Made by a program: the position numbers and the translations under genes. The notes under the pieces were generated by a model. It saw only the letters and a list, made by a program, of their open reading frames with translations. It ran no database searches and was not told where the DNA came from. Positions 711-39,702 of a stretch of DNA of 43,021 nt are shown here, in pieces (within the stretch, counting starts at the first letter, position 1; each line of letters opens with the position of its first letter). The stretch spans positions 1-43,021 of the forward strand of contig JACIWR010000003.1 in the NCBI GenBank assembly GCA_014360845.1, written 5' to 3'. The stretch is from Anaerolineae bacterium. Lineage in GTDB: Bacteria > Chloroflexota > Anaerolineae > JACIWR01.

Positions 711-3374
711 TCATTCCTCAACCACGGAAATGGGCACCAGGACGAGATGGTCTGTTGGTGGATACCCTTCCCTGCGAACCAGCAGTCTCCTGCCCGTAAG
801 CGGTTCGTACATTCCTACCTCGACTATGTACTCTCCTGGAGGTGCATCCTCGGAAACTGGGATAGCATAGGGGTCCCTGACGATCTCGCCTTCTCGCCAG
901 ACCCAGACGGGATAAGTACCGAAATAGGGAGGGTTATCTTTCTGCCCCCAAATCTCGTTATTACTATCCAGTAGATGGGTGAAGACAGTGTAAGATTCCT
1001 TAGTAGGTGTAATGGCTTGCCAGTACAAGGTGAGGTTAATCGTCTGCCCAGGCTTGACCATGGTCTTATCCACGTCGTAGCCCAGCAGCCTGACTTTGCC
1101 ACCGAGCTCAGCGGATAGAGGATGGGTAGGTGTGACTGGTTCCGGACGAAACTCACCCTGCCAGAACCAATAGTAGAAAGGCGCATGCCAGCGAAAATGG
1201 GGAGACTCGGTGACAGCTTCGAAGCGCAACTTCGTCCGTCCAGAGGTAATGTGCTTGCCTGGCACCAAGTACGCCGTTTCTATCCACTCCCCTGGCCCAG
1301 CCGGGTAAGCCCACAAGCCGAGATACATATCGTTGACGAAGACCCGCAGGCGGACATCGTTCATAGCATGAGCACGCATGACAATCATCATGTCCTCCCC
1401 GGGTTCTGACCGCACCACCATCTCTTCGCCACCGCTCATCATTCGACCTCCATCCAAGACGACACGGGAAGGGTCGGCGCGATAAGAGAACTGTCTGACT
1501 TCAGTGGGAAACCCAGCAGGCCGGCCAGTTTGCCACCACCGGTAGCTATGCATCTTCTCACTTCGTAGATCTGCCACGTCCAGTGTATCCACTAGATGCA
1601 TCCCTTGTATTTGGCTCAGGATATTCGTCTGAACTATCTCGCTGCCACTGTCACCCAGTCGCCAGTCAACCCTGTAGACCGCCTGTTCAGAGAAGGCACT
1701 GGCAACCTTGGAGAAATCGGGCACTTCCACACGGTAAAGCTCCTGAGCAAACATGTCGGTATCGGCGAAGTAGATAGCCGGCGGGAAAGCTCCCGTGTAG
1801 ACAGCAATGTAGTCAGGGCGGGCCAGAACCGATCGCCCGGACAGAGAGATTTCATGCGATTCCATAGCCTCAAAAACACTACCCGGTCCATTGCGCCCCG
1901 CCTCTGCTGCGCCGTTGGTGACCAATCCCACCAAATCGTAAACGTATCTGTGGCCAAAATATTTTAATACACCTACGTCATGAACAGCAACACGAGCCTG
2001 AGGTGGCAAGTGATCGTCGATCCACCTGGCCATCGCCATTTGCTGCCTGCTAATTGTGAAGCAGGCCATTCCGTATCGCCCGGCAAAGGTATGGACCGTT
2101 AAAAGAGAATAGGCAATAAGAGGGGAAGCTACAGCTACTAGTACCCACTCCCGCTGCCGCAAAATGTAGCGGCGGACGGCTCTATACGCTATAAGGCCAA
2201 CAGCACGACGGTTACCCGCTACACCTGCACTAATTATACGGGTGAATTTCGTCACCAACCATCTAACCACAGCAGACAACCCCCAGCTCCCATAGACAAT
2301 GACCAGGGGGAAAAAAGGCATTTGGTAACGGGCATAATGCCACAGCGCATTGTAAAGAGTAGCGGTAGAGGCTAGCCCAATAAAAAACCAGAGCATCACC
2401 AGGATAGCCGGTCCGATTGTTCGGCGACGCCATTCCTTGAGAGCTCCCAGTAGCACCCCTCCCAAGAAGAACAGGAAGAAAAAAGGCGGCAGGTAGTAAC
2501 GCCACTCGTCCCCCACGCCTCCAAATACACCAACCATTATCTCGCGATAGTATGCCAGAATCGAGTTGAGAACGTAAGTGGGGTACATAGGCACAGAATA
2601 GAACCACGATTTAGCTTTCATCCCATTGGCAGATAGACTGCCGGTCAGAACATAATTCAGGAGAGGCTGGATGAGACCTGCCAGGATAGGTAACAAGATT
2701 GCAGGTAGGATACGTCTGGCTCGCCCGCCTTCTCGGAGCCACAGTGCTAGAGCCAGTAGGCCAGCTAGTATCAACCCCTCTGGACGAGTCATCGCCATCA
2801 GCGAGGCACAAAGGCTCAGACGACGAAACCGCCGCTGGATGAAACTATCCAAAGTAGCCAGAATCAGAGTAGTGAACAGACCGGTCTCCATCCCACTGGA
2901 GAAGCTCCACAGGAGCGGTCCGTTTAGCAAGAAAAAGAGCCCAGCCAGTAGAGCAACTGCAGACGAAGATAGCTTATGCTCGCTGCTTTGCTCCTGAGCG
3001 CCGCTTGCTATCGAGAATGTAATACGGTATACCAAGATAGCAGACACTGCCAACAACAGCGCGTTGAGACCGAGGGCAAAAACAATGAGCCTGGTGTCAC
3101 TGAACCCCAGAAGGTATCCTATAGCAAGTACAAATGGATAAAGCAAACTCGTGGCGCCAGTGCTGGGCGGGTCCTCGCTGTTGTAACAAAAAAAGCATCC
3201 CTGAGCCAACTGGCGAGCGTACTGGAAGTGGATAAATGCATCATCCAGGGGCATCACCAGTTCACCCCCTGTGTAGGAAAGCATAGTGTACAGAAAAAAC
3301 AGTACCATGATAAAGGCCATAATGACAAGTACTGCTATATGTCTATGGGAGACCGATGTGCGATTCGCTTTCAT
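711..3374 (-). CDS. Large polytopic membrane protein, putative GT-C-fold glycosyltransferase, with an extracytoplasmic C-terminal region.
   Basis: 887-aa ORF with many hydrophobic helices in the N-terminal ~430 aa. An early loop motif PLDDAFIHFQYARQLAQG resembles GT-C enzymes. ATG at 3372-3374 lies 3 nt after the stop of the upstream gene. The C-terminal domain is shared with the neighbours. Confidence 0.6.
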   Translation of the reverse strand: MKANRTSVSHRHIAVLVIMAFIMVLFFLYTMLSYTGGELVMPLDDAFIHFQYARQLAQGCFFCYNSEDPPSTGATSLLYPFVLAIGYLLGFSDTRLIVFALGLNALLLAVSAILVYRITFSIASGAQEQSSEHKLSSSAVALLAGLFFLLNGPLLWSFSSGMETGLFTTLILATLDSFIQRRFRRLSLCASLMAMTRPEGLILAGLLALALWLREGGRARRILPAILLPILAGLIQPLLNYVLTGSLSANGMKAKSWFYSVPMYPTYVLNSILAYYREIMVGVFGGVGDEWRYYLPPFFFLFFLGGVLLGALKEWRRRTIGPAILVMLWFFIGLASTATLYNALWHYARYQMPFFPLVIVYGSWGLSAVVRWLVTKFTRIISAGVAGNRRAVGLIAYRAVRRYILRQREWVLVAVASPLIAYSLLTVHTFAGRYGMACFTISRQQMAMARWIDDHLPPQARVAVHDVGVLKYFGHRYVYDLVGLVTNGAAEAGRNGPGSVFEAMESHEISLSGRSVLARPDYIAVYTGAFPPAIYFADTDMFAQELYRVEVPDFSKVASAFSEQAVYRVDWRLGDSGSEIVQTNILSQIQGMHLVDTLDVADLRSEKMHSYRWWQTGRPAGFPTEVRQFSYRADPSRVVLDGGRMMSGGEEMVVRSEPGEDMMIVMRAHAMNDVRLRVFVNDMYLGLWAYPAGPGEWIETAYLVPGKHITSGRTKLRFEAVTESPHFRWHAPFYYWFWQGEFRPEPVTPTHPLSAELGGKVRLLGYDVDKTMVKPGQTINLTLYWQAITPTKESYTVFTHLLDSNNEIWGQKDNPPYFGTYPVWVWREGEIVRDPYAIPVSEDAPPGEYIVEVGMYEPLTGRRLLVRREGYPPTDHLVLVPISVVEE

Positions 3375-14132: not shown

Positions 14133-15041
14133 TCAGTGGCAAACCGCCGGTCGCATCGTGGCGGTAAACGAGGTATTCACGTGATGACCTCTCAGGATAT
14201 GCTTCGCCAACGCCGGGTTACTCCTGAGGTCAAGCACCAGCCCGGCCTGATCGCTCTCCTCGAAAGCCCGCAGTATCGAGGAGTTTATGTCATTTCTGAT
14301 CCGCACCTGGCTGACATTGAGAGCCGGCCCCGTCATGGTGGCCTGCCGGTCACTAATCCGCAGGGTGTTAAAACTCACTTTTCCCACCAGGACCGGGTCC
14401 TTCCCCAGAGACGCGATCTGCAAGGACACGGGGGTGGGGTCCACCTCAAACTCGAAGCCGTCGGCGGATTCGGTGTAACGTCCGGTGAGACGGATAGCTC
14501 CCAAACCGATGAAATGCCAGGTCATGTAACCGCCCCTCCTCACCAGCGGGTCTCGTGGGCCATAATCCCCAGAGTTCACGTAGGCCAAACCGAATAGCAG
14601 CGCCTCGCTGAACCCGTCTCCATCTCGATCCAGCCAAAGCAGTCGCCCATCAAAACTGAAGCCAGAGCACTGCGTCACCGAGGTAGCGGTGGGCGCGGGC
14701 GTGGGCGTCGGTGTAGCAGTGGGTGGCAAAGGGGGCACCGTGGGTATAATCACCGGCGTGCCGGCCGGGGGCAACGGGGGCAGGGTAGGTGTCGGCGTAG
14801 GCGTGGCCGGGCTGAGCGTCGGCGTAGCCGTCGGCGTCGGACTGGCCATAGCGACCGGCGTGACCTCCTCCGCTGCGGGCGCGATCACCCCGGAGAGGGC
14901 AGCGTGAGCTTCGCTGAACACCCCTCCCACCTGCGGCCCCATGGCCACCAACACGCCACTGGTGACCACGCTGACCAGCAGCAGCATCAATGCGACTTCC
15001 ACCACCCCCTGGCCTTTTTCACACATCCACTTCCTCTGCAT
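14133..15041 (-). CDS. Second Flp-like prepilin N-terminus with a long PT-rich linker and a ~190-aa C-terminal domain of unknown function.
   Basis: N-terminus is EKGQGVVEVALMLLLVSVVTSGVLVAMG. The linker is about 60 aa of P/T/A-rich sequence. The C-terminal domain has no motif I recognise. Confidence 0.6.
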   Translation of the reverse strand: MQRKWMCEKGQGVVEVALMLLLVSVVTSGVLVAMGPQVGGVFSEAHAALSGVIAPAAEEVTPVAMASPTPTATPTLSPATPTPTPTLPPLPPAGTPVIIPTVPPLPPTATPTPTPAPTATSVTQCSGFSFDGRLLWLDRDGDGFSEALLFGLAYVNSGDYGPRDPLVRRGGYMTWHFIGLGAIRLTGRYTESADGFEFEVDPTPVSLQIASLGKDPVLVGKVSFNTLRISDRQATMTGPALNVSQVRIRNDINSSILRAFEESDQAGLVLDLRSNPALAKHILRGHHVNTSFTATMRPAVCH

Positions 15042-28993: not shown

Positions 28994-30121
28994 TCAATCG
29001 AGCGGGGTAGCGTACAACCTGATCTCGTCACCCACCACCTGGCCGCACCATGTCCCGCCGGCCAGCGCTCCCACCGGCAGATGGAAAAAGTCCAGCGGGT
29101 AGCACAGCCCTTCGCCCAGGCGGAAGCCATTGTCTTTGCTGGTGATCAAGCGCTCATCGGGCACGCCGGGGAAGTCCGGTCCGGCTGCCTCGCCCTGCAC
29201 CCAGCCCACACCGGGTAGGTAGACCTCGACCCAGACGTGCATGCCCAGGTTCTGCCCAAACCAACTGGCCAGCGGCTCGAAGTGGGGCGGACGCGGCTCG
29301 CCGATGCGCGCCGGGCGCAATCCCGCTATCACCCGCGCTGGAATCCCCGCCGCCCGGCAGAGGGCGACGAAGACCTTGCTCTGACCGTTGCAGTCGCCCA
29401 ACCCCTCCTGAATGCAGCCTAGCGTGTCCGAGGGATAGGGGTCGCCCAGCCTGGGATAGATGATGTGCTCCTCCACCCACTGCTGGATGAGCAAGACTTT
29501 CCGCCACGGGTTGGTCTCATCCCCGACGATGGATTCGGCCAGAGCGCGTACCTCTTCGCGGTCCGAGGGGATGACCGCGTTGGGCGCGGTGTAGGTCTGG
29601 TACAACTCGCTCGTCTCGTCGTAGTCCCCTATCTGCTCCGCATCAATCGTGTACACCGCCGGGGCCACGCTGACCTCGAACTCCACGCCGAAGATGCAAT
29701 CGCCAGACTGGCAGAGGGCAGGCACTTCCGCCCAATGCACCACCTGATTGCCGGCCCGGTCCAAAAGCTCGTACCCGTCCGGGTAAGCGCGCAGGAACTC
29801 GACATCGAGGGTGCCCTGCCCATCCCAATCGCGGGGCACGGGCAGCCACAGGTGATCCACCATCCTATCCTTGCGGTAGACCGTTGGCCGCTCGATCTCG
29901 TAACGCATGCGGTAGCGGCGGGTGGGCACCGGCGTTGGGGTGGGCGTGCTGGTCGGTGTTGGGGTCGCCGTCGGGGTGGGTGTGGGGGTATAAGTCGCTG
30001 TCGCCGTGGGCGATGGGGTCGCCGATGGAGTAGGCGAAGGCGACGGTGTAGGCGTCGGGCTCGATAGTGCCGGCGCGCAGCCGCTGATCAAAAGCAACAG
30101 AATACACAACCACTTTCTCAT
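28994..30121 (-). CDS. Lipoprotein with a PT-rich linker and a transglutaminase-like cysteine protease core.
   Basis: Lipobox [10 protein letters not shown]. About 45 aa of PT repeats. Core motifs [23 protein letters not shown] and [14 protein letters not shown]. The ATG at 30121 is preceded by GGAAGAGGA. The listed start at 30139 is TTG. Confidence 0.75.
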
Positions 30122-30151
30122 GAGTTCCTCTTCCCTCAACCTCCCGCAGGT

Positions 30152-31053: not shown

Positions 31054-32229
31054 CTACTCCAGGGCATTCGCCACCAGGGTAATCAGGTCGCGCACTGGCA
31101 TTTCAATCTCCGCGCCCAACCTGGGATCGTCCATGGCGCACAAGAAATGAATCTGGCACTTGGCGCAGGCCGTGACCAGCATCTCGGCGCCGGTGGCCCG
31201 TGCCTCCCGCAGGCGTTCCACCTGGATAGCCTTGCTCGTCGCGCCGCAGTTCGTCCATCCGCTGGTGCCGCAACAAGTGGAGGTTTTGCCCGCGTGTGCC
31301 ATCTCCACTATCTCGATGCCCAGGGCCCGCAGAAGCTGGCGTGGGGCATCGTACACGTGCATGTAGCGTCCCAGCCGGCATGGGTCCTGGTAGGTGGCGG
31401 ATGGTGAATGGTGGGTGGCAGATGGCGGATGGCGGGTGGCAGATAGCAGATGGCGAATGGCGGATAGCAGGTCACTGGCGGACAGTAACTCGGCGATGTG
31501 CAGCACTTCCATGCCGGTATTGCCCACGAAGGCCGGGTAGTCCACTTTGAGGGTGTAGGCACATTCCGGACAGGAGGTGACGATGCGTCGGGCTCCGGTG
31601 CTCCGCAGCAGTTCCAGGTTCAGTTCGGCCAGGTGGCGGAAGGTGTTCACGTCGCCTTGCCACAGCAAGTCGTGACCGCAGCAGCGTTCGTCGGCCAGGA
31701 CGGCGGGTACGATGTCCAGCGCGTTGAGCACGCGCACCGCAGCGCGGGCGATGTCCACGCCCTGGAAGCCCTGTCGGCGGAAAAGCACGTCATAATACGG
31801 CAGACAACCCACCCAGTACACCGTATCCGAGGTAGGTGAGACCTGCAGGTCCCCCATCAACCAGTCCAGCCGGTTCTGCTTCAGCGCCGGATCGGCCATC
31901 ATGCGCATCCAGGTGTGGATGGTATCGCCGTGAGTGCACGCGCCCTGGTGGCCGATCTCGCGAGCCAGGATGCGCAGCTCGCGAGTGAACTCGGAGTAGT
32001 GCACATCCGAGGGGCAGATTTCGCTGCACCGTCGGCAGGTGAGGCAGGCCCAGGCCAAAGGGCTTTCCAGGACAGCATGAGCACGTCCGGCAACCACCTC
32101 TTCCACAATCCGGCGCGGCGAAAACCCGCTGTCCTGTCGCGCCACGGGACACGTCGCCGTGCATTTACCGCATTCCAGGCAATAGTAAGCCCGGTGGCGG
32201 GTGATTGTTTGTTTGATAGGGTCTGGCAA
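31054..32229 (-). CDS. HdrD-like Fe-S oxidoreductase: a fused HdrC-type 2x[4Fe-4S] domain plus two HdrB-type CCG domains.
   Basis: Motifs CLECGKCTATCPV, CLTCRRCSEICPS, CCGHDL, YQDPCRLGRY and CCGTSGW. I place the start at TTG 32229, which lies 8 nt after AGGAG and 11 nt after the mvhD stop. The listed ORF start at 32535 would overlap all of mvhD. Confidence 0.75.
   Translation of the reverse strand: MPDPIKQTITRHRAYYCLECGKCTATCPVARQDSGFSPRRIVEEVVAGRAHAVLESPLAWACLTCRRCSEICPSDVHYSEFTRELRILAREIGHQGACTHGDTIHTWMRMMADPALKQNRLDWLMGDLQVSPTSDTVYWVGCLPYYDVLFRRQGFQGVDIARAAVRVLNALDIVPAVLADERCCGHDLLWQGDVNTFRHLAELNLELLRSTGARRIVTSCPECAYTLKVDYPAFVGNTGMEVLHIAELLSASDLLSAIRHLLSATRHPPSATHHSPSATYQDPCRLGRYMHVYDAPRQLLRALGIEIVEMAHAGKTSTCCGTSGWTNCGATSKAIQVERLREARATGAEMLVTACAKCQIHFLCAMDDPRLGAEIEMPVRDLITLVANALE
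31389..31472. repeat. 12 tandem heptamers (consensus GGCRGAT on the plus strand) inside the hdrD-like coding sequence.
   Basis: Units read ggtaggt ggcggat ggtgaat ggtgggt ggcagat ggcggat ggcgggt ggcagat agcagat ggcgaat ggcggat agcaggt. That is 84 nt or 28 codons, and it encodes LLSAIRHLLSATRHPPSATHHSPSAT. Confidence 0.85.
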
Positions 32230-32240
32230 TGTGCGATCTC

Positions 32241-32657
32241 CTAATGGGATGGCGGAAGAGTGGAAGGTTGGAAGGAGCACAACTGCTCGATGAACGCTGT
32301 CACTTTCTCCACAAAGGCGTGCCCATCGCCGACATCCAGCCAATCCAGGCGCAATCGCTCCTCGGCGATACCCAGCAAATGCGCCAGCGCCCGTGCCTCG
32401 GCAAAGACTTCTTCCGCGTGGCGGTTTCCGAAGCCGTAGTGACATTCGCCCGGCGGGCAACCCAGCAGAAGCACGCTGTCGGCCCCCTGCTCGAATGCCT
32501 TGAGGATCAGCCCCGGATGCAGGCGGCCCAGACACATCACCTTGACCGCATACACGCCGGCCGGATAGCTCAAACCCTCGACGCCCGCCGCCTCCAAACT
32601 GCTATACGCATTCCAGTTACAGGTGAACACAATAACCCGTGTTTCCGTTTTTTCCAT
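32241..32657 (-). CDS. mvhD: MvhD-like protein (methyl-viologen-reducing hydrogenase delta-subunit family [2Fe-2S] protein).
   Basis: Reads VIVFTCNWNAYSSLEAAG..VKVMCLGRLHP..LLLGCPPGECHYGFGN. The ATG at 32657 is preceded by GGAAGGTG. The last ~8 codons lie in octamer repeats at 32252-32275. Confidence 0.8.
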   Translation of the reverse strand: MEKTETRVIVFTCNWNAYSSLEAAGVEGLSYPAGVYAVKVMCLGRLHPGLILKAFEQGADSVLLLGCPPGECHYGFGNRHAEEVFAEARALAHLLGIAEERLRLDWLDVGDGHAFVEKVTAFIEQLCSFQPSTLPPSH

Positions 32658-32712
32658 CACCTTCCGTCCTCGGGTCGCCCGCGCAGATGAAACCCAGCAA
32701 TCAGGCCTTATC

Positions 32713-33333
32713 TCAGTCGTCAAAGCAAGTCAGCATTACCACCGTATAGTCGTCGTTTACGCTGAACGCCAGCATAACGTTGGCACGTTCCTCTTCACGC
32801 ACAAAATCTAAAACAACGGCGGGGCCCCCGAACAAACCTGCCTCACTATACTGACGCTTATACAACTGCCAGCCCAGTACTGCCATTTGTTCCTGGTAAT
32901 AAGCCTCTACGTCTTCCACCATAGCCTCAACCGCATAAACATAGCTGAAGCCAGCAGGCCGCCCCTCGATAGCCCCCGGCATGACAGGCAATCCTTCCCA
33001 TGAGGGCACAGGCGTTCCCATGGTATCTGATTGACCGCTTACAGTAGACGTAGGCTCTGGCAGTGTGGCGGTCGGGGCTATTACCGATGGCGTCGGAGTG
33101 TCCACCGGCAATTGAGTCGCGGTGGGGAGTGGTGTCGCAGTAGGAAGGGGTGTCGTGGTGGGGAGTGGTGTCACGGTAGGAAGCGGTGTTTTAGTGGATT
33201 CTGGTGTTGCGGTAGGTGTTGATGTCTCAATTGCCGTCGTCGCGGTGGTGATAGACGATACCTGGAAAGATGAATCACAGGACGACAACACAATAACGCA
33301 AAAAATCATCACGGCAAACAAGCCTCGCTGCAT
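32713..33333 (-). CDS. Lipoprotein with a PT-rich linker and a small C-terminal domain of unknown function.
   Basis: Lipobox VIVLSSCDSS. The linker is TPTATPESTKTPLPTVTPLPTTTPLPTATPLPTAT. It is embedded between the hdrL-like gene and mvhD. Confidence 0.6.
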   Translation of the reverse strand: MQRGLFAVMIFCVIVLSSCDSSFQVSSITTATTAIETSTPTATPESTKTPLPTVTPLPTTTPLPTATPLPTATQLPVDTPTPSVIAPTATLPEPTSTVSGQSDTMGTPVPSWEGLPVMPGAIEGRPAGFSYVYAVEAMVEDVEAYYQEQMAVLGWQLYKRQYSEAGLFGGPAVVLDFVREEERANVMLAFSVNDDYTVVMLTCFDD

Positions 33334-33430
33334 TGGATGTCCTCCTTTAGCTAAGAGTCCCTCAATTACTCATCCAAATAAGCGGTCACACATCAAACGC
33401 CCCCAAAATGCTATTCGTCCTCCCCGCTCC

Positions 33431-33480
33431 ATCCGTTCAATCCGTTCCATCCGCTTAATCCGCTGACTAATCCGCTGACA
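33431..33480. repeat. Tandem nonamer-type repeat (ATCCGYTYA) spanning the hdrL-like stop codon.
   Basis: The atccg motif recurs at 33431, 33440, 33449, 33458 and 33470. The last unit supplies the final codons (..LSAD) and sits beside the TAG at 33467-33469. Confidence 0.7.
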
Positions 33481-36400
33481 ATACCGCCTTTAGCATAGCC
33501 TCGATTTGTGCATCCGTCGAGTAACCGGCCACGATAGCGCCCGACGGGCAATGCGCCGCGCAGGTCCCGCACCCGGTACAGGCCGCCGCATTGACCACGG
33601 CATGCCACCCTCCTGCCGCCGTCTGCCGCACGGCGATGGCTCCGAACTCGCACAGCGATTCACAAGTGCCGCACGCCCGGCAGCGCACCGCCTCCACCTG
33701 GGCCACGTTGCCGTCCGCCCCCCGCCGGCTGCGCCCCAGCAGGGCCATCACCTGGGCCGCAACCGCCGCGCCGGACTTCTCCGTTTCCTGCTCTGGAGAA
33801 CAGACGAAGAGGCCCGGTCGTCGGCCCGCCAGCCCCCCTAGATCAAAAACCCGTTCCCAGGGCGCGAAATCGGTAGCGCTGGCGGGAGCAAGCACTATCA
33901 CCGCGGCGGACACGGTACGCGACGCGTCATTGTATCCCAGGGTCACGGTGTAATCGCCCAGGGAACCCCGCGCCTCGACTGGTTGACTCGCCTCGCGTAT
34001 CACAGCCACGCCCTGGCGAGCGAGAAGTCCGGCGCAGGTCTCGGCGGCCTGGCCCCGCCCCCACACCAGCACCGGCCCCGTCACAGGCTCTACCACTCGA
34101 CGGCGCGCATCCGGTTCCCGCAGCCTGGCAACCGCCGCCGCTATCAAGCGCCGCGCCTTGGCCGTGGCTCGCGCCGCATCGTCGGCGTGCACCCAGGCGC
34201 ACTGTTCACGGATGTTCACCAGCTCTATGCGTGCCGGGATTTGCTGGCCGCCGTCCGCCAACACCCCCAAATGCGTCCGGCATCGCACCCGCTGTGACGT
34301 GCACCCGTAGCAGACCTGATCCAGCGTACAGCACGAGCAGGCGGCCAGGACCACGCCGTCCAACCCGTGGACTCTCACCGCAGCGGCTATCGTCTCCGCC
34401 CCTTCTGCCTGGCAGGCAAAATCCAGAGGGGCAGCGTAGACCACGCCTGGCCAGTGAGTCGCCTGGGCCACCACCGTGGAGACGTCCACCACGTCGGCGA
34501 TCTCGCTCCCGCATTTGCAGACGAAGACCCCGATGCGGATGGCGAAGGGCGGATGGCGGATAGCAAGTGGCAGACGGCGAGTGGCGGATGGGGTGGGGAG
34601 GACCTCTAGAGCAACGCCCAAATCGGCCATGACCCGCGCGGCCACCGCCGAAGCGCCCACCACATCGTCAGCCGCCACGTGATACACGCGATCATCGCCG
34701 CCGGTCACCTGCCCCTCACCCACGAGGACAACCGCTCCCACGTCCAGAGTGGCCGTCTCCTCGCGCATGGCGTGGTCAATCGCCCGCGGCTGGCAGACCT
34801 TCTCGCAGGCCAGGCACTCGGCGCAAGGACCGCAGCTCAGACAGCGACTGGCCTCGGCCAAGGCCGTCGCCTCGTCGAAACCCAGCTCCACCTCCGCGTA
34901 CCCGCCAGTCCGCTCCGCCGGGGAGATGGTCGGCATGGGCTGGCGCGGTTTGGGCCCTTTCTCCTCCGGCAGCAGTTCGCGGCGGGCCACCGGCATCGGG
35001 GGCGCTTCCACCGCCAACTCGTCCGGCAATCTGAGGCCGCGCAGGAAAGCGTCCATGGCTCGCGCGGCCCGCTTCCCCTTGCCGATGGCGTCAATCACCG
35101 ACCAGGGCTGGCCGATGGCGTCGCCCGCGGCGAACACGCCCGGCTTGCCGGTCATGTAAGTCACCGGGTCCACAAGCAGATTGCCCTGGCGGGTGACACC
35201 GCACTCACCCAGCGCCTCGCCCAGAAAATCCAGGTCGGGCTGCTGACCGATGGCCGGCACCACCAAATCCACCTCCACGATGAACTCCGAACCGGCGATG
35301 GGCACCGGGCGGCGGCGACCGCTCTCGTCAGGTTCGCCCAATTCCATGCGCACGCACTCCAGCCCCACCACCTGCTCGCTTTCACCTATCACGCGGATGG
35401 GCTGAGTGAGAAATTCGATGGGAATCCCCTCCCGCTCGGCGTCCTCCACCTCGTCGGGGATGGCCGGCATCTCGTCCCGCGAGCGACGATAGAGAACGCG
35501 CACATCGCGCACGCCCTGGCGCAGCAGACAGCGGGCCACATCTATGGCCGTGTTTCCCCCGCCGATAACCGCTGCCCGTCGCACGTGAGGGGGTAAGAGC
35601 TGCCGCAACCGCTCCGGCCACTCCGAATCCGGCAATTGCTGCGCCAGATTGATCGTCCGCAGCAACTCGATCCCCTGCACCACGCCCGGCAGCTCCTCAC
35701 CGGGGATGACCAGATTCCGCGGGCGGTGTGCACCGACGCCCAGGAACACCGCATCGTACTTATCCAGCAAATCATCCACGCTGAGGTCGCCGTCCGGCCC
35801 GATGCGCGTATTGCAGCGTATCTCCACGCCCATCTCCTGGAGGCGCGCCACCTCGCGGCGGATCACCTCTCGGGGCAGCCGATAGGCCGGAATGCCCACA
35901 GCCATCATCCCGCCAACCACCGGCAGCGCCTCGAAGACCGTCACCGCATGCCCGCGCCTGACCAGTTCGTAGGCCACGGTGAGGCCAGAGGGACCGGAGC
36001 CGACGATGGCGACGTGTTTTCCAGTGGAAGGGCGGAAGGGCGGAGGGTTGGAAGGGTGGAAGGGTGGAAGGGTGCAGTCGGCGACGAAGCGCTTCAGGTT
36101 GCGTATGCTCAGCGCCTGGTCCACCTCCGCGCGGCGGCAGTTGGTCTCGCAGGGATGGTGACACACACGGCCCAGGATGCCAGGGAAGGGCACCGCCTCG
36201 TAAATCAAATCCAGGGCCTCGCGATAGCGTCCAGCAGCGATGAGGGCCACGTAGCCCTGTACGTGGATGCCGCCCGGGCAGGCGTCGGTACAGGGGGCGC
36301 GGCCCTGCCTGTCAATCACATAGATATTGGGCACCGAGACACCGGGCAGCTTGTGGATGGCAGTATGTCCCTGGCCCGGCACCACCACCGGGCAGACTTC

Positions 36401-36757
36401 CTCACAATCGCCGCAGGCCGTGCAGCGCTGTGCGTCCACAAAGCGGGGCCAGGAGCGAACCTCAGCGCGCAGGTCGGCCCCCTCCCCCGCCAGGCGAGTG
36501 AGGGTGGTATTCGTCCACACGGTGATACGCGGATGCTTCACCGCCTCCAACCGTAGGCCGGGTTGGTAACTCGTCTTACGGTTCCCGCCGAGAAAAGGCG
36601 AAGGTTCAACTAAATGAACCTGCAACCCGGCGTCCGCCAAATCCAGAGCAGCGCGGAGCCCCGCCGCATCGCTGCCCAGGATCAACACCTCTCGCGCCAA
36701 CCCTCTCCTCCTATCCGCCACCCACCAACCGCCGCCCGTATTCGTACCCCAGCTCAA
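33467..36757 (-). CDS. HdrL-like giant flavo-Fe-S fusion. Order: truncated HdrA-type FAD domain, ferredoxin, GltD/NfnB-type NAD(P)H:FAD module, Fe-S domain, HdrA N-terminal-type domain, 2x[4Fe-4S] ferredoxin.
   Basis: Motifs in order: [21 protein letters not shown]; CTACGDCEEVCP; GILGRVCHHPCETNCRR; HVAIVGSGPSGLTVAYEL..GGMM.GIP.YRLP; AAVIGGGNTAIDVAR; VFAAGDA; CLSCGPCAECLACEKVC; IGVFVCKCGSEIADVVD..VNIREQCAWVH; CRACGTCESLCE..CTGCGTCAAHCP. An alternative start is TTG 36700, which is 6 nt after AGGAGG and 10 nt after the korG stop. Confidence 0.8.
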   Translation of the reverse strand: MSWGTNTGGGWWVADRRRGLAREVLILGSDAAGLRAALDLADAGLQVHLVEPSPFLGGNRKTSYQPGLRLEAVKHPRITVWTNTTLTRLAGEGADLRAEVRSWPRFVDAQRCTACGDCEEVCPVVVPGQGHTAIHKLPGVSVPNIYVIDRQGRAPCTDACPGGIHVQGYVALIAAGRYREALDLIYEAVPFPGILGRVCHHPCETNCRRAEVDQALSIRNLKRFVADCTLPPFHPSNPPPFRPSTGKHVAIVGSGPSGLTVAYELVRRGHAVTVFEALPVVGGMMAVGIPAYRLPREVIRREVARLQEMGVEIRCNTRIGPDGDLSVDDLLDKYDAVFLGVGAHRPRNLVIPGEELPGVVQGIELLRTINLAQQLPDSEWPERLRQLLPPHVRRAAVIGGGNTAIDVARCLLRQGVRDVRVLYRRSRDEMPAIPDEVEDAEREGIPIEFLTQPIRVIGESEQVVGLECVRMELGEPDESGRRRPVPIAGSEFIVEVDLVVPAIGQQPDLDFLGEALGECGVTRQGNLLVDPVTYMTGKPGVFAAGDAIGQPWSVIDAIGKGKRAARAMDAFLRGLRLPDELAVEAPPMPVARRELLPEEKGPKPRQPMPTISPAERTGGYAEVELGFDEATALAEASRCLSCGPCAECLACEKVCQPRAIDHAMREETATLDVGAVVLVGEGQVTGGDDRVYHVAADDVVGASAVAARVMADLGVALEVLPTPSATRRLPLAIRHPPFAIRIGVFVCKCGSEIADVVDVSTVVAQATHWPGVVYAAPLDFACQAEGAETIAAAVRVHGLDGVVLAACSCCTLDQVCYGCTSQRVRCRTHLGVLADGGQQIPARIELVNIREQCAWVHADDAARATAKARRLIAAAVARLREPDARRRVVEPVTGPVLVWGRGQAAETCAGLLARQGVAVIREASQPVEARGSLGDYTVTLGYNDASRTVSAAVIVLAPASATDFAPWERVFDLGGLAGRRPGLFVCSPEQETEKSGAAVAAQVMALLGRSRRGADGNVAQVEAVRCRACGTCESLCEFGAIAVRQTAAGGWHAVVNAAACTGCGTCAAHCPSGAIVAGYSTDAQIEAMLKAVLSAD
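34534..34596. repeat. 9 tandem heptamers of the GGCGGAT family in frame inside the hdrL-like gene.
   Basis: Units read tgcggat ggcgaag ggcggat ggcggat agcaagt ggcagac ggcgagt ggcggat ggggtgg. That is 63 nt or 21 codons. It encodes PTPSATRRLPLAIRHPPFAIR immediately before IGVFVCKCG. Confidence 0.8.
36024..36071. repeat. 6 tandem octamers (GYGGAAGG) in frame inside the hdrL-like gene.
   Basis: Units read gtggaagg gcggaagg gcggaggg ttggaagg gtggaagg gtggaagg. That is 48 nt or 16 codons. It encodes TLPPFHPSNPPPFRPS just before the Rossmann motif GKHVAIVGSGPSG. Confidence 0.85.
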
Positions 36758-37283: not shown

Positions 37284-37340
37284 AGGTGACAGTCACTTCC
37301 AAAGTGACTGTCACCTGGCTGTCACCTGGCTGTCACCTGG
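37284..37340. repeat. 14-bp perfect hairpin whose right arm is the first of three perfect 11-nt tandem repeats (CTGTCACCTGG).
   Basis: The hairpin is aggtgacagtcact-tccaa-agtgactgtcacct (37284-37316). The ctgtcacctgg copies lie at 37308, 37319 and 37330. The korB stop (37322-37324) is inside copy 2. Confidence 0.85.
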
Positions 37341-38182
37341 CAATCCAGGAACGTCGGCTTCTCGATGTCTATGAACTTGCCCTCGACAATCTCTCCGCCC
37401 AGTTCTATATCCACGCTCTTTGGATCCGCACCATGGCGGATGACACCTTTTTCGTGATAGTACTTCAACGTATCAAGCCCCGTGCGCTGCTTATGTCGCC
37501 GCCCGAAGTTAGTGGGACAAGGGGAGATCACCTCCACAAAGCTGAATCCGCGCTTGGCCAACGCCTCGCCTATGGCTCGCTCCAGGCGGCGCACGTGAAG
37601 CACCGTCCACCGCGCCACGTATACCGCCCCGCTGGCCACCGCCAGATACGGCAGGTTGAAGGGGTGCTCGTAGTTGCCGTAAGGGGTAGTGGTGGTAATG
37701 CTCCCCACCGGCGTCGTGGCCCCGTGTTGACCGCCGGTCATCCCGTAATTGAAATTATTGACGCAGATGACCGTCATGTCTATGTTGCGCCGCGCGGCAT
37801 GGATGAAGTGATTGCCGCCGATAGTCACCAGATCACCATCACCGGAGAAGACCACCACCTTCAGCTCCGGATTGGCCAGCTTGAGCCCCGTGGCGAAGGG
37901 TATCGCCCGCCCGTGCGTGGTGTGGAATGAATCCAGTTGCACGTAGCCCGCCACCCGCCCCGTGCAACCGATGCCGCTGACCACGACCACCTTGTCCAGG
38001 TCCAAACCCGATTTCAGCAGAGCACTGATGAAACAGGTCAGCGCCGTGCCAATCCCGCAGCCCGAACACCAGATGTGCGGCAGCCGCTCCTCACGCAGCA
38101 GAGCATCCATCGGGTGGCGTTCCGGCGAGACGGCCCCCGGTTCCACCGAATTCACCTCCATGTGACCCGTCAGCTCGCTCAT
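37322..38182 (-). CDS. korB: 2-oxoacid:ferredoxin oxidoreductase beta subunit (TPP-binding).
   Basis: Motifs WCSGCGIG, SGIGC and GDGD.. IGGNHFIHAARRNIDMTVICVNN. The internal ATG at 38182 overlaps the korA stop (ATGA). The listed N-terminal extension is G/A/R-rich and lies inside korA. Confidence 0.85.
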   Translation of the reverse strand: MSELTGHMEVNSVEPGAVSPERHPMDALLREERLPHIWCSGCGIGTALTCFISALLKSGLDLDKVVVVSGIGCTGRVAGYVQLDSFHTTHGRAIPFATGLKLANPELKVVVFSGDGDLVTIGGNHFIHAARRNIDMTVICVNNFNYGMTGGQHGATTPVGSITTTTPYGNYEHPFNLPYLAVASGAVYVARWTVLHVRRLERAIGEALAKRGFSFVEVISPCPTNFGRRHKQRTGLDTLKYYHEKGVIRHGADPKSVDIELGGEIVEGKFIDIEKPTFLDCQVTAR

Positions 38183-39646: not shown

Positions 39647-39702
39647 CACGCTTCACGCTTCACGTTTCCCGTTTCACGCCTTACGTTTTACGCCTCACGC
39701 CC
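39647..39702. repeat. 8 tandem heptamers (CACGCTT family) filling the sucD-korD spacer.
   Basis: Units read cacgctt cacgctt cacgttt cccgttt cacgcct tacgttt tacgcct cacgccc. The repeat ends 2 nt from the sucD stop. Confidence 0.85.

Follow-up and report, generated by a model that had tools for sequence, protein, structure and literature searches.

Tandem repeats with units not divisible by three are usually thought to be excluded from genes or to act there as frameshift switches. The question raised by the stretch of DNA analysed here (43,021 nt of contig JACIWR010000003.1 from an Anaerolineae bacterium; hereafter the window) is what has become of such a repeat, an array of heptanucleotides, that lies within the gene of an HdrD-like Fe-S protein (Table 1). 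An earlier note, made from the sequence alone, had offered two answers, namely a phase-variable contingency locus in a core redox enzyme, or repeat DNA taken up as a protein linker. Our analysis favours the second: the tract is very probably a decayed heptanucleotide simple sequence repeat (SSR) that became fixed as a length-tolerant linker between two CCG (non-cubane Fe-S cluster) domains. This would represent a third outcome, in which a heptamer array becomes fixed without loss of frame, is translated in all three phases and lengthens by 21-nt blocks as a linker, in this case in both a core Fe-S redox enzyme and the partner of that enzyme. What is notable in the tract is the translated inter-domain linker in a core enzyme, its 21-nt superstructure and the recurrence of arrays at one site across the clade. 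The host lineage is an uncultured member of the Anaerolineae, whose best genome matches are the metagenome-assembled genomes (MAGs) JANLFX01 (86% identity) and JAGGZG01 (77%).

The heptamer tract and its host protein

The called protein (P0001) starts at the TTG codon at 32229, within an enclosing open reading frame (ORF) that spans 31054-32535 on the minus strand. GGAG precedes this start, which is separated by 11 nt from the stop codon of the MvhD-like gene upstream. Pfam searches identified an N-terminal 2x[4Fe-4S] ferredoxin domain (Fer4_8, 1.1e-9) and the CCG domain (1.3e-27), the latter in two stretches at residues 149-228 and 279-362. Moreover, every cysteine that is invariant across 112 homologues is present in the HdrD-like protein (in the alignment of 112, numbering of A2: C17, C20, C23, C27, C62, C68, C72, C142, C184, C220, C284, C319, C320, C355 and C358). 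This is the HdrD-type architecture, a fusion of HdrC and HdrB in which a ferredoxin domain is joined to two CCG domains with conserved cysteines. The AlphaFold2 model of the protein had a mean predicted local distance difference test (pLDDT) of 90.3 and a predicted template modelling score (pTM) of 0.90, and Foldseek matched it to the Mycobacterium smegmatis EtfD (9ojn, TMq 0.74) and to the methanogen HdrB (8rwn_B and 5odc_B, TMq ~0.5). Assignment to an NCBIfam equivalog (HdrD, TfrB, GlpC, DsrK etc.) was rejected, as all scores were far below the cutoffs and the best, to TfrB, reached 128.5 bits against a cutoff of 385. 'HdrD-like' is therefore an architectural label and does not denote a known substrate. 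The protein resembles CCG proteins of the HdrD/HdrBC, EtfD, GlpC, TfrB and LutA types in its HdrC-like two-cluster ferredoxin domain, its two CCG domains, its full set of family-invariant cysteines and the clustering of its gene with those of MvhD and an HdrA-like flavoprotein. It differs from them in falling below every equivalog cutoff and in having an inter-CCG linker that is built from nucleotide repeats.

The twelve in-frame tandem heptamers reported by the earlier note were borne out by the sequence, by Tandem Repeats Finder (TRF) and by shuffle tests. On the plus strand the units read GGTAGGT GGCGGAT GGTGAAT GGTGGGT GGCAGAT GGCGGAT GGCGGGT GGCAGAT AGCAGAT GGCGAAT GGCGGAT AGCAGGT, giving the consensus GGCGGAT, which corresponds to CCATCCG or ATCCGCC on the coding strand. 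There the array reads CTATCCG CCATTCG CCATCTG CTATCTG CCACCCG CCATCCG CCATCTG CCACCCA CCATTCA CCATCCG CCACCTA. It is translated from the minus strand in three phases as a 7-aa repeat (SAIRHLL/SATRHPP/SATHHSP/SAT), and residues 255-279 (LSAIRHLLSATRHPPSATHHSPSAT) run directly into YQDPC, with which the second CCG domain begins. The peptide reading and the placement between the CCG domains, abutting YQDPC, had thus been given correctly. TRF detected the tract at periods of 7, 21 and 28 with scores of 54-84. A two-unit pattern, allowing ≤3 mismatches, matched the window 28 times, compared with 9.9 ± 3.3 times in dinucleotide-preserving shuffles (0/100 shuffles reached 28), and 10 of these matches follow one another at 7-nt spacing within the tract. 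Identity at a lag of 7 nt is 0.71 in the tract, whilst no 77-nt stretch exceeded 0.51 when the window was shuffled 50 times. The tract therefore has the make-up of a heptanucleotide long SSR, that is, head-to-tail units of 5-11 nt over a length beyond chance. Its description as 'clean' was overstated, however. Only 5/12 units fit GGCRGAT, neighbouring units are never identical and no perfect tandem is longer than 15 nt; mismatches to GGCGGAT number, unit by unit, 3, 0, 2, 2, 1, 0, 1, 1, 2, 1, 0 and 3.

Alignments of 20 and of 112 homologues show that the HdrD-like protein is highly conserved except for the linker, which is its only hypervariable segment. From an invariant histidine (H244) to TYQDPC this segment measures ~16 to 66 aa, with unrelated sequences and zero conserved columns. 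In many Anaerolineae orthologues it is occupied by other repeats: ACGCATC x9.4 read as RITYHASRITHHASRIT (RITHHAS type), GAATCCC read as EFRIPNPES, GTTGGAA read as KLEVGSWK, and a linker of the SNIQRPI type (SNIQRPISNLQHPIS). Further Anaerolineae orthologues carry the octamer-derived peptide GIGESANQ. Among the related loci (numbered here with the prefix L), L100 (6001-7176), L101 and L102 have octamer-derived 8-aa repeats at the same linker (GIGESGNQ or RIGESASQ, lag-8 DNA identity 0.56-0.61), so that both 7- and 8-nt repeats colonise this position. The repeat-bearing Anaerolineae linkers as a whole have lag-7 (or lag-8) identities of ~0.55-0.70 in their DNA. No such periodicity was found in the orthologues from Desulfobacterales, Dehalococcoidia, Calditrichota and other groups, where identity is ~0.2-0.35 at every lag.

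The predicted structure points in the same direction. The model has a dip in confidence at residues 261-280, with pLDDT <50 at 267-272, whilst the rest is mostly at pLDDT >85 and one other 10-residue block, 321-330, averages 61. Residues 254-264 continue a helix (pLDDT ~86 falling to 64) and residues 265-276 form coil. The segment thus lies between folding domains, is free in length and sequence among orthologues and is of low predicted order, apart from its helical residues. Low confidence and length variation fit a putatively surface-exposed spacer between the two CCG domains. Taken together, the inter-CCG position, the hypervariability, the low pLDDT in mid-insert and the presence of sibling arrays at other domain boundaries (see below) support the uptake of repeat DNA as a protein linker.

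A different reading of the same segment is that the repeat peptide is functional in itself, either as a His-rich loop that handles metal or clusters (H260, H267, H273 and H274) or as a docking arm for GltD-HdrA or MvhD, and was expanded by positive selection. In its favour, His recurs with the repeat both in the window and in orthologues whose linkers are of the RITHHAS type, the first part of the insert is predicted to be helical with moderate confidence, and the tract's heptamer is also found at a junction of the partner protein. However, the peptides of the orthologues are unrelated (PIADCAL, EFRIPNP, KLEVGSW, SNIQRPI, GIGESANQ), many linkers are only 16-20 aa long and contain no His, and the absence of conserved columns and the low mid-insert confidence also argue against it. 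Moreover, the His codons are a direct product of the C/A/T-rich unit. We regard a functional peptide as improbable.

The unit sequences at the inter-CCG site differ completely among orthologues, leaving no sequence-specific site conserved. This also bears on the idea that the array acts at the level of DNA or RNA, as a G-quadruplex on the G-rich template strand, as the site of a heptamer-reading protein or as a pause site for transcription or translation. The plus strand has 19 GG runs and ViennaRNA with its G-quadruplex option folds it into two-tetrad quadruplexes, at -39.1 kcal/mol compared with -24.8 kcal/mol without the option, although this applies RNA parameters to the non-mRNA strand. 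Quadruplex formation in vitro is known for G-rich heptamers from Xanthomonas and Nostoc (PMC4692102). Yet the tract has only 3 GGG runs, which would make for a weak two-tetrad quadruplex at most, and action at this level seems very unlikely. The C-rich mRNA strand folds worse than shuffled controls (minimum free energy -19.7 kcal/mol, z = +1.31), and on this basis an mRNA structure element within the tract was rejected.

Copy number and reading frame

We compared the tract with its counterparts in the closest relatives. At 77-88% protein identity, the inter-CCG linker is 14 aa shorter than in the window and retains a 7-nt periodicity. L001 and L005 (88% amino acid identity) have five units of the tract's own heptamer at the tract site (CTATCCA CCATCCG CCATCCG CTATCCG CTACCTA), encoding LLSTIRHPLSAT. 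In L002 the linker has the same length as in L001/L005 and consists of a degenerate period-7 segment (CCAATTG CTGATTG CGCATTG TCAACCG TCACCTA). The window, with 11 full units against 5 in L001/L005, has six more units, or 42 nt and 14 aa. Accordingly, the expectation that orthologues lack a 28-aa insert holds in part: the linker is indeed shorter in the closest relatives, but not all 28 aa are extra, given the five units in L001/L005. As judged from these alignments, the window tract represents a six-unit expansion of a pre-existing period-7 linker. A period-7 segment was already present here before the window lineage and its closest relatives diverged, as the latter carry either five units or a degenerate period-7 segment of equal length.

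The shared unit also speaks to the trustworthiness of the assembly. Repeats are classic sites of assembly error, and the tract is known from a single contig and from a protein cluster with a single member, so that mis-assembly or collapse of the repeat in this metagenomic contig has to be considered. Against this, the tract comprises 84 nt of non-identical units, is shorter than typical reads and can be placed uniquely; the reading frame and all family-invariant residues are intact; the independent assemblies L001 and L005 share the unit at the tract site; and L002-L004 contain orthologues of the sibling arrays found within the GltD-HdrA gene. An artefact is thus extremely unlikely.

Two further arrays within the adjacent gene of a fusion flavoprotein (GltD-HdrA; Table 1) also differ in copy number between relatives. 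The heptamer array has 8 units in the window and 5 in L002 (+7 aa in the window), and the octamer array has ~6 units in the window and ~12 in L002 (-16 aa in the window). Including the HdrD linker, all three differences (6, 3 and 6 units) are multiples of three.

The internal order of the units suggests how the length of the tract changed. Pure heptamer slippage followed by decay would lead to identity that falls with distance. In the tract, identity is instead highest at a lag of 21 nt (0.83), followed by lags of 7 (0.71) and 14 nt (0.66), and a permutation of unit order gave p = 0.004. This pattern suggests growth by 21-nt duplications, each of three units and 7 aa, and the latest changes in the tract were probably in-frame blocks of this size. 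As read from the sequence, successive 21-mers differ at ~14-19% of positions and so these duplications were not recent. A second case is found in L165, where an array within the GltD-HdrA protein, AAACGTG x16.9, forms a perfect 21-nt repeat in which one in three units is AAACGTC, removing a TGA, and is translated as KRETSNV x5.7. The superstructure thus holds for the tract and for this L165 array, but growth in 21-nt steps as a general rule for coding arrays was rejected (see below).

These observations are central to whether the tract could be a contingency locus, in which slippage of a single heptamer would switch the HdrD-like enzyme ON or OFF by frameshift and generate heterogeneity of a redox pathway within the population. 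The arithmetic behind this proposal is correct: with a unit length of 7, gain or loss of one or two units puts the downstream codons out of frame, so that the second CCG domain is scrambled or cut short and would be destroyed, the first stops falling at aa 305-378. Copy number has moreover changed in evolution (11 units vs 5), and the lineage produces heptamer arrays at a high rate. However, no uninterrupted tract exists on which slippage could act, as neighbouring units are never identical and perfect tandem repetition does not exceed 15 nt, and all length differences between relatives are multiples of three units. We searched 166 sequences for the anchor motifs CPEC and DPC on either side of the linker; 43 were without one anchor under the regular expression used. 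In all 123 orthologous loci with both flanking motifs (123/123) the frame across the linker is intact, and no frameshifted allele was found among them. In addition, L002, L003 and L004, which are independent assemblies of one population (99.7-99.9% identical), do not differ in their coding heptamer or octamer arrays. Only two indels separate them (L002:11140-11260 vs L003 and L004), one copy of a 17-nt repeat (AGCTACCCGACTAACGT) and a stretch of 5 nt, which both fall in the hairpin-rich spacer that directly follows the HdrD-like gene. Location argues in the same direction, since the array lies ~65% into a cytoplasmic core redox protein (residues 255-279 of 391) rather than close to the 5′ end of a gene for surface structures or restriction-modification, and two further arrays occupy the adjacent essential partner gene.

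Known SSR contingency loci of Haemophilus, Neisseria and Campylobacter (PMC11868660) share with the window a tandem repeat within an ORF and a unit not divisible by three. They differ in that the window repeats are imperfect, occur in in-frame length classes only, lie in a cytoplasmic core redox gene of a free-living environmental host and have no ON/OFF alleles among the 123 loci. The hallmarks of such loci, namely an uninterrupted hypermutable tract, repeat numbers both in and out of frame, and a 5′ or promoter position in a non-essential gene for surface structures, host interaction or restriction-modification, are thus absent from the sequences compared here. With degenerate units, a 21-nt superperiod and a frame that is kept in all 123 loci, a phase-variable switch is highly unlikely.

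Repeat bias in related loci and its bearing on the linker

We sought to place the tract among the repeats of its lineage by running TRF on the window and 164 related loci (1.78 Mb), counting non-redundant arrays with ≥4 copies. Period 7 was represented by 144 arrays and period 8 by 34, whilst any other single period accounted for ≤5. More than half of the heptamer arrays (83/144) lie inside long ORFs as delimited by a stop-to-stop heuristic. Heptamer arrays reach 24 per 100 kb in the closest 19 loci, compared with ~1 per 100 kb in the remaining Chloroflexota loci and 4.5 per 100 kb in non-Chloroflexota loci. The window and its relatives therefore contain many dispersed arrays with period 7 predominant. 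An example of extreme density, for which real gene calls are available, is L165 (1-21161; a relative of L007; JGI Ga0194112_10001759), where 21 kb contain 28 arrays with units of 7 or 8 nt. A single GltD-HdrA protein of 1140 aa accounts for nine of these, many others overlap gene starts or stops, and some are in spacers. Some unit families recur within this locus, namely AGGGATC, counting rotated and reverse-complemented forms, at about six places, and GTTGGAA/TCCAACC. In the window the tract gene and the GltD-HdrA gene share a unit; in L165 the units of the two genes differ.

L165 also contains two adjacent heptamer arrays with near reverse-complementary units, GTTGGAA followed by TCCAACC (14846-14918; also L007:14837-14909 and L011:707-785). 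In L165 both are translated in a Fer4-FlpD protein (LEVGSWKLEVG and SNLRPPTSNLQP). As a pair they would fold into a long imperfect hairpin, whether as DNA or as RNA.

On its own the tract is of modest interest; the apparent saturation of an Anaerolineae subclade with translated 7- and 8-nt repeats is more noteworthy. We tentatively suggest that this subclade may have a lineage-specific process that seeds and expands such repeats at very high density, the proteome absorbing the arrays as terminal extensions and inter-domain linkers and linker sites being re-colonised with different units. If true, the tract would be one instance of proteome-wide linker innovation by units not divisible by three, and the subclade would lend itself, as a natural system, to the question of why prokaryotic repeats favour units of 7 nt. 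A search of the literature found no paper that ties heptamer repeats to Chloroflexi/Chloroflexota or Anaerolineae, a result limited to the searchable literature and not proof of novelty.

Heptanucleotides are described as the most abundant class of long SSRs in many prokaryotes, and slippage linked to polymerase contacts has been proposed as the cause (Mrazek et al. 2007, as quoted in PMC4679880 and PMC4692102). In the same quoted account, repeats within genes mostly have units divisible by three and heptamers are mainly intergenic (Mrazek, Guo and Shah 2007, via PMC4679880 and PMC4692102). As far as these quotations go, the arrays described here resemble long prokaryotic SSRs (5-11 nt units) in being head-to-tail heptamers beyond chance, in occurring many times per genome in non-pathogens of rather high G+C, in the dominance of period 7 and in their presumed origin by slippage. 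They differ in that the window array is translated, which by the heuristic also applies to over half of those in related loci. The examples given in PMC4679880 and PMC4692102 include no Chloroflexota.

Three families of dispersed heptamers offer further comparisons, STRR, GGGNATC and TAACTGA, all mostly intergenic and each with one or few fixed units (PMC4692102, PMC4679880). The cyanobacterial STRR (Calothrix, Nostoc, Anabaena) and the GGGNATC-type repeats (Xanthomonas, Nostoc) are likewise dispersed tandem heptamers of variable unit number and are often found <50 bp from gene ends (PMC4692102). Similarly, an array of CACGCTT in the window begins 4 nt after a stop codon and many arrays in L165 overlap gene ends. 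In contrast, the Anaerolineae units are diverse (ATCCGCC, AAGCGTG, ACGCATC, GTTGGAA, AGGGATC and others) and often inside ORFs. The tract does not belong to STRR as such, whose units (e.g. CCCCAGT, mainly intergenic in heterocystous cyanobacteria) are absent; here the units are ATCCGCC and AAGCGTG, the tract is coding and the host belongs to the Anaerolineae. For the TAACTGA direct repeats of marine Beggiatoaceae, a three-phase reading has been described in which orientation and stop codons determine translatability, and tolerance between the modules of modular proteins was considered possible (PMC4679880). The window tract is exactly such a three-phase translated array between protein modules. 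The Beggiatoaceae repeats, however, have a single favoured unit, mostly occur in 2-6 copies in 5′ untranslated regions and were proposed to be regulatory, whilst here other units occupy internal inter-domain positions of enzymes.

The fixation of the tract as a linker could then have proceeded as follows. Arrays would arise and change length via replication slippage or unequal recombination. A stop-free unit gives rise to a 7-aa peptide repeat, here SA[I/T]RHPP, each unit being read in a different phase because 7 is not divisible by 3. In the window lineage, expansion probably took place in 21-nt blocks, one 7-aa repeat per block. Selection would remove changes that are not a multiple of three units, because the second CCG domain would be lost. 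The peptide sequence itself is probably free of selection, because orthologues carry unrelated repeat peptides at the inter-CCG site. Later point mutations would have interrupted the array, leaving a stable and ordinary coding stretch that serves as a spacer or loop and not as a switch.

Several points weigh against this account. The first ten repeat residues are modelled as helix with pLDDT dropping from ~86 to 64, and the insert may be partly structured. A lag-21 identity above that at lag 14 was found in only 2/10 long ORF-embedded arrays (and in 5/10 non-embedded ones). The ORF-embedded class was itself defined by the stop-to-stop heuristic in GC-rich DNA and compared with real gene calls in one locus only (L165). 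A scan of metagenomes for variants of the exact window strain gave nothing closer than 81% identity, and the window protein is the single member of its cluster, leaving room for rare length variants.

Uptake as a linker nevertheless has consequences for annotation. When such tracts turn up in metagenome-derived Anaerolineae genomes, the default label should not be that of a contingency locus, an assembly error or the scar of a pseudogene. Variation in protein length can be fuelled by the dynamics of non-coding repeats, and the density of 7- and 8-nt arrays, if genome-wide, would provide material for the question of why heptamers dominate the long repeats of prokaryotes.

Neighbouring genes and other repeats in the window

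Table 1. Window coordinates of the genes and repeat arrays under discussion.
Feature	Position	Strand	Basis or location
HdrD-like Fe-S protein gene, 391 aa, TTG start	31054..32229	-	Pfam, homologues, AlphaFold2, Foldseek
Imperfect heptanucleotide array, 12 units, 84 nt	31389..31472	-	residues 255-279 of HdrD-like protein
MvhD/FlpD-like gene, between fusion gene and HdrD-like gene	32241..32723	-	ORFs, Pfam
GltD-like/HdrA-like fusion flavoprotein gene (GltD-HdrA), ORF of 1096 aa	33467..36757	-	hosts two sibling arrays
Sibling array of the tract's own heptamer, ~8 degenerate units	34534..34591	-	GltD-HdrA gene, ORF residues 723-742
Octanucleotide array, ~6 units, coding-strand unit CCTTCCAC	36024..36074	-	GltD-HdrA gene, ORF residues 229-245
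Intergenic heptamer array, unit CACGCTT (plus strand), ~7.7 units	39647..39701		spacer between SucD-like ORF and ferredoxin gene

The genes of GltD-HdrA, the MvhD/FlpD-like protein and the HdrD-like protein form a three-gene cluster. The N-terminal part of the fusion flavoprotein is like the small subunit of NADPH-dependent glutamate synthase (NCBIfam PRK12771, 520 bits) and its C-terminal part is HdrA-like; from an alignment with L002, the true start of the gene is probably near 36700. TRF found three heptamer arrays and one octamer array in the window in total. The sibling heptamer array, 3 kb from the tract, encodes PSATRRLPLAIRHPPFAIRIG and bridges the junction of the GltD-like and HdrA-like parts, ending just N-terminal to the HdrA-like module (start near residue 741). 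The octamer array is translated as PPFHPSNPPPFRPS and is situated between Fer4_20 (153-228) and Pyr_redox_2 (248-561). All three translated arrays in the window are therefore at domain boundaries as defined by Pfam or NCBIfam. The CACGCTT array follows the stop of a SucD-like ORF (end 39705). On the gene (minus) strand it reads AAGCGTG, creating TGA, and so cannot be translated from that strand; its orthologue in L002 is at 3245-3307.

Gene order around the HdrD-like gene is different in L001 (2181-3234) and L005, both from MAG JANLFX01, where a MarR-ABC transporter cluster stands upstream instead of GltD-HdrA and MvhD. Downstream synteny is retained (a hydrolase and a transglutaminase-like protein). 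The gene call in L001/L005 gives a 336-aa product lacking the ferredoxin domain, yet the tblastn match spans residues 1-390.

Repeats of other periods were also observed at gene ends in the window. A perfect 11-nt repeat (CCAGGTGACAG x3, minus strand; TRF 37308-37341, 100% matches) in the region 37290-37345 overlaps the stop of an ORF for the beta subunit of a 2-oxoacid:ferredoxin oxidoreductase and continues into a perfect inverted repeat of 16 bp (CAGGTGACAGTCACTT/AAGTGACTGTCACCTG), which is situated shortly before the start of the gamma subunit. The corresponding beta/gamma spacer in L002 is 13 nt only. Another gene-end repeat, consisting of a 9-nt repeat (CCGCTCAAT x4.6) and a 12-nt repeat (x2), is found at 33424-33479 in the spacer directly downstream of the GltD-HdrA stop codon (33467).

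Lastly, two repeats with units divisible by three encode ordinary repeat linkers. An 18/36-nt repeat at 33116-33216 gives rise to Thr/Pro-rich repeats of the TPLPT type; its ORF, of 206 aa, has a hydrophobic, signal-like N-terminus and no Pfam match. The other is a long TPTPSP-type linker after the signal region of a transglutaminase-like lipoprotein (28994-30139).

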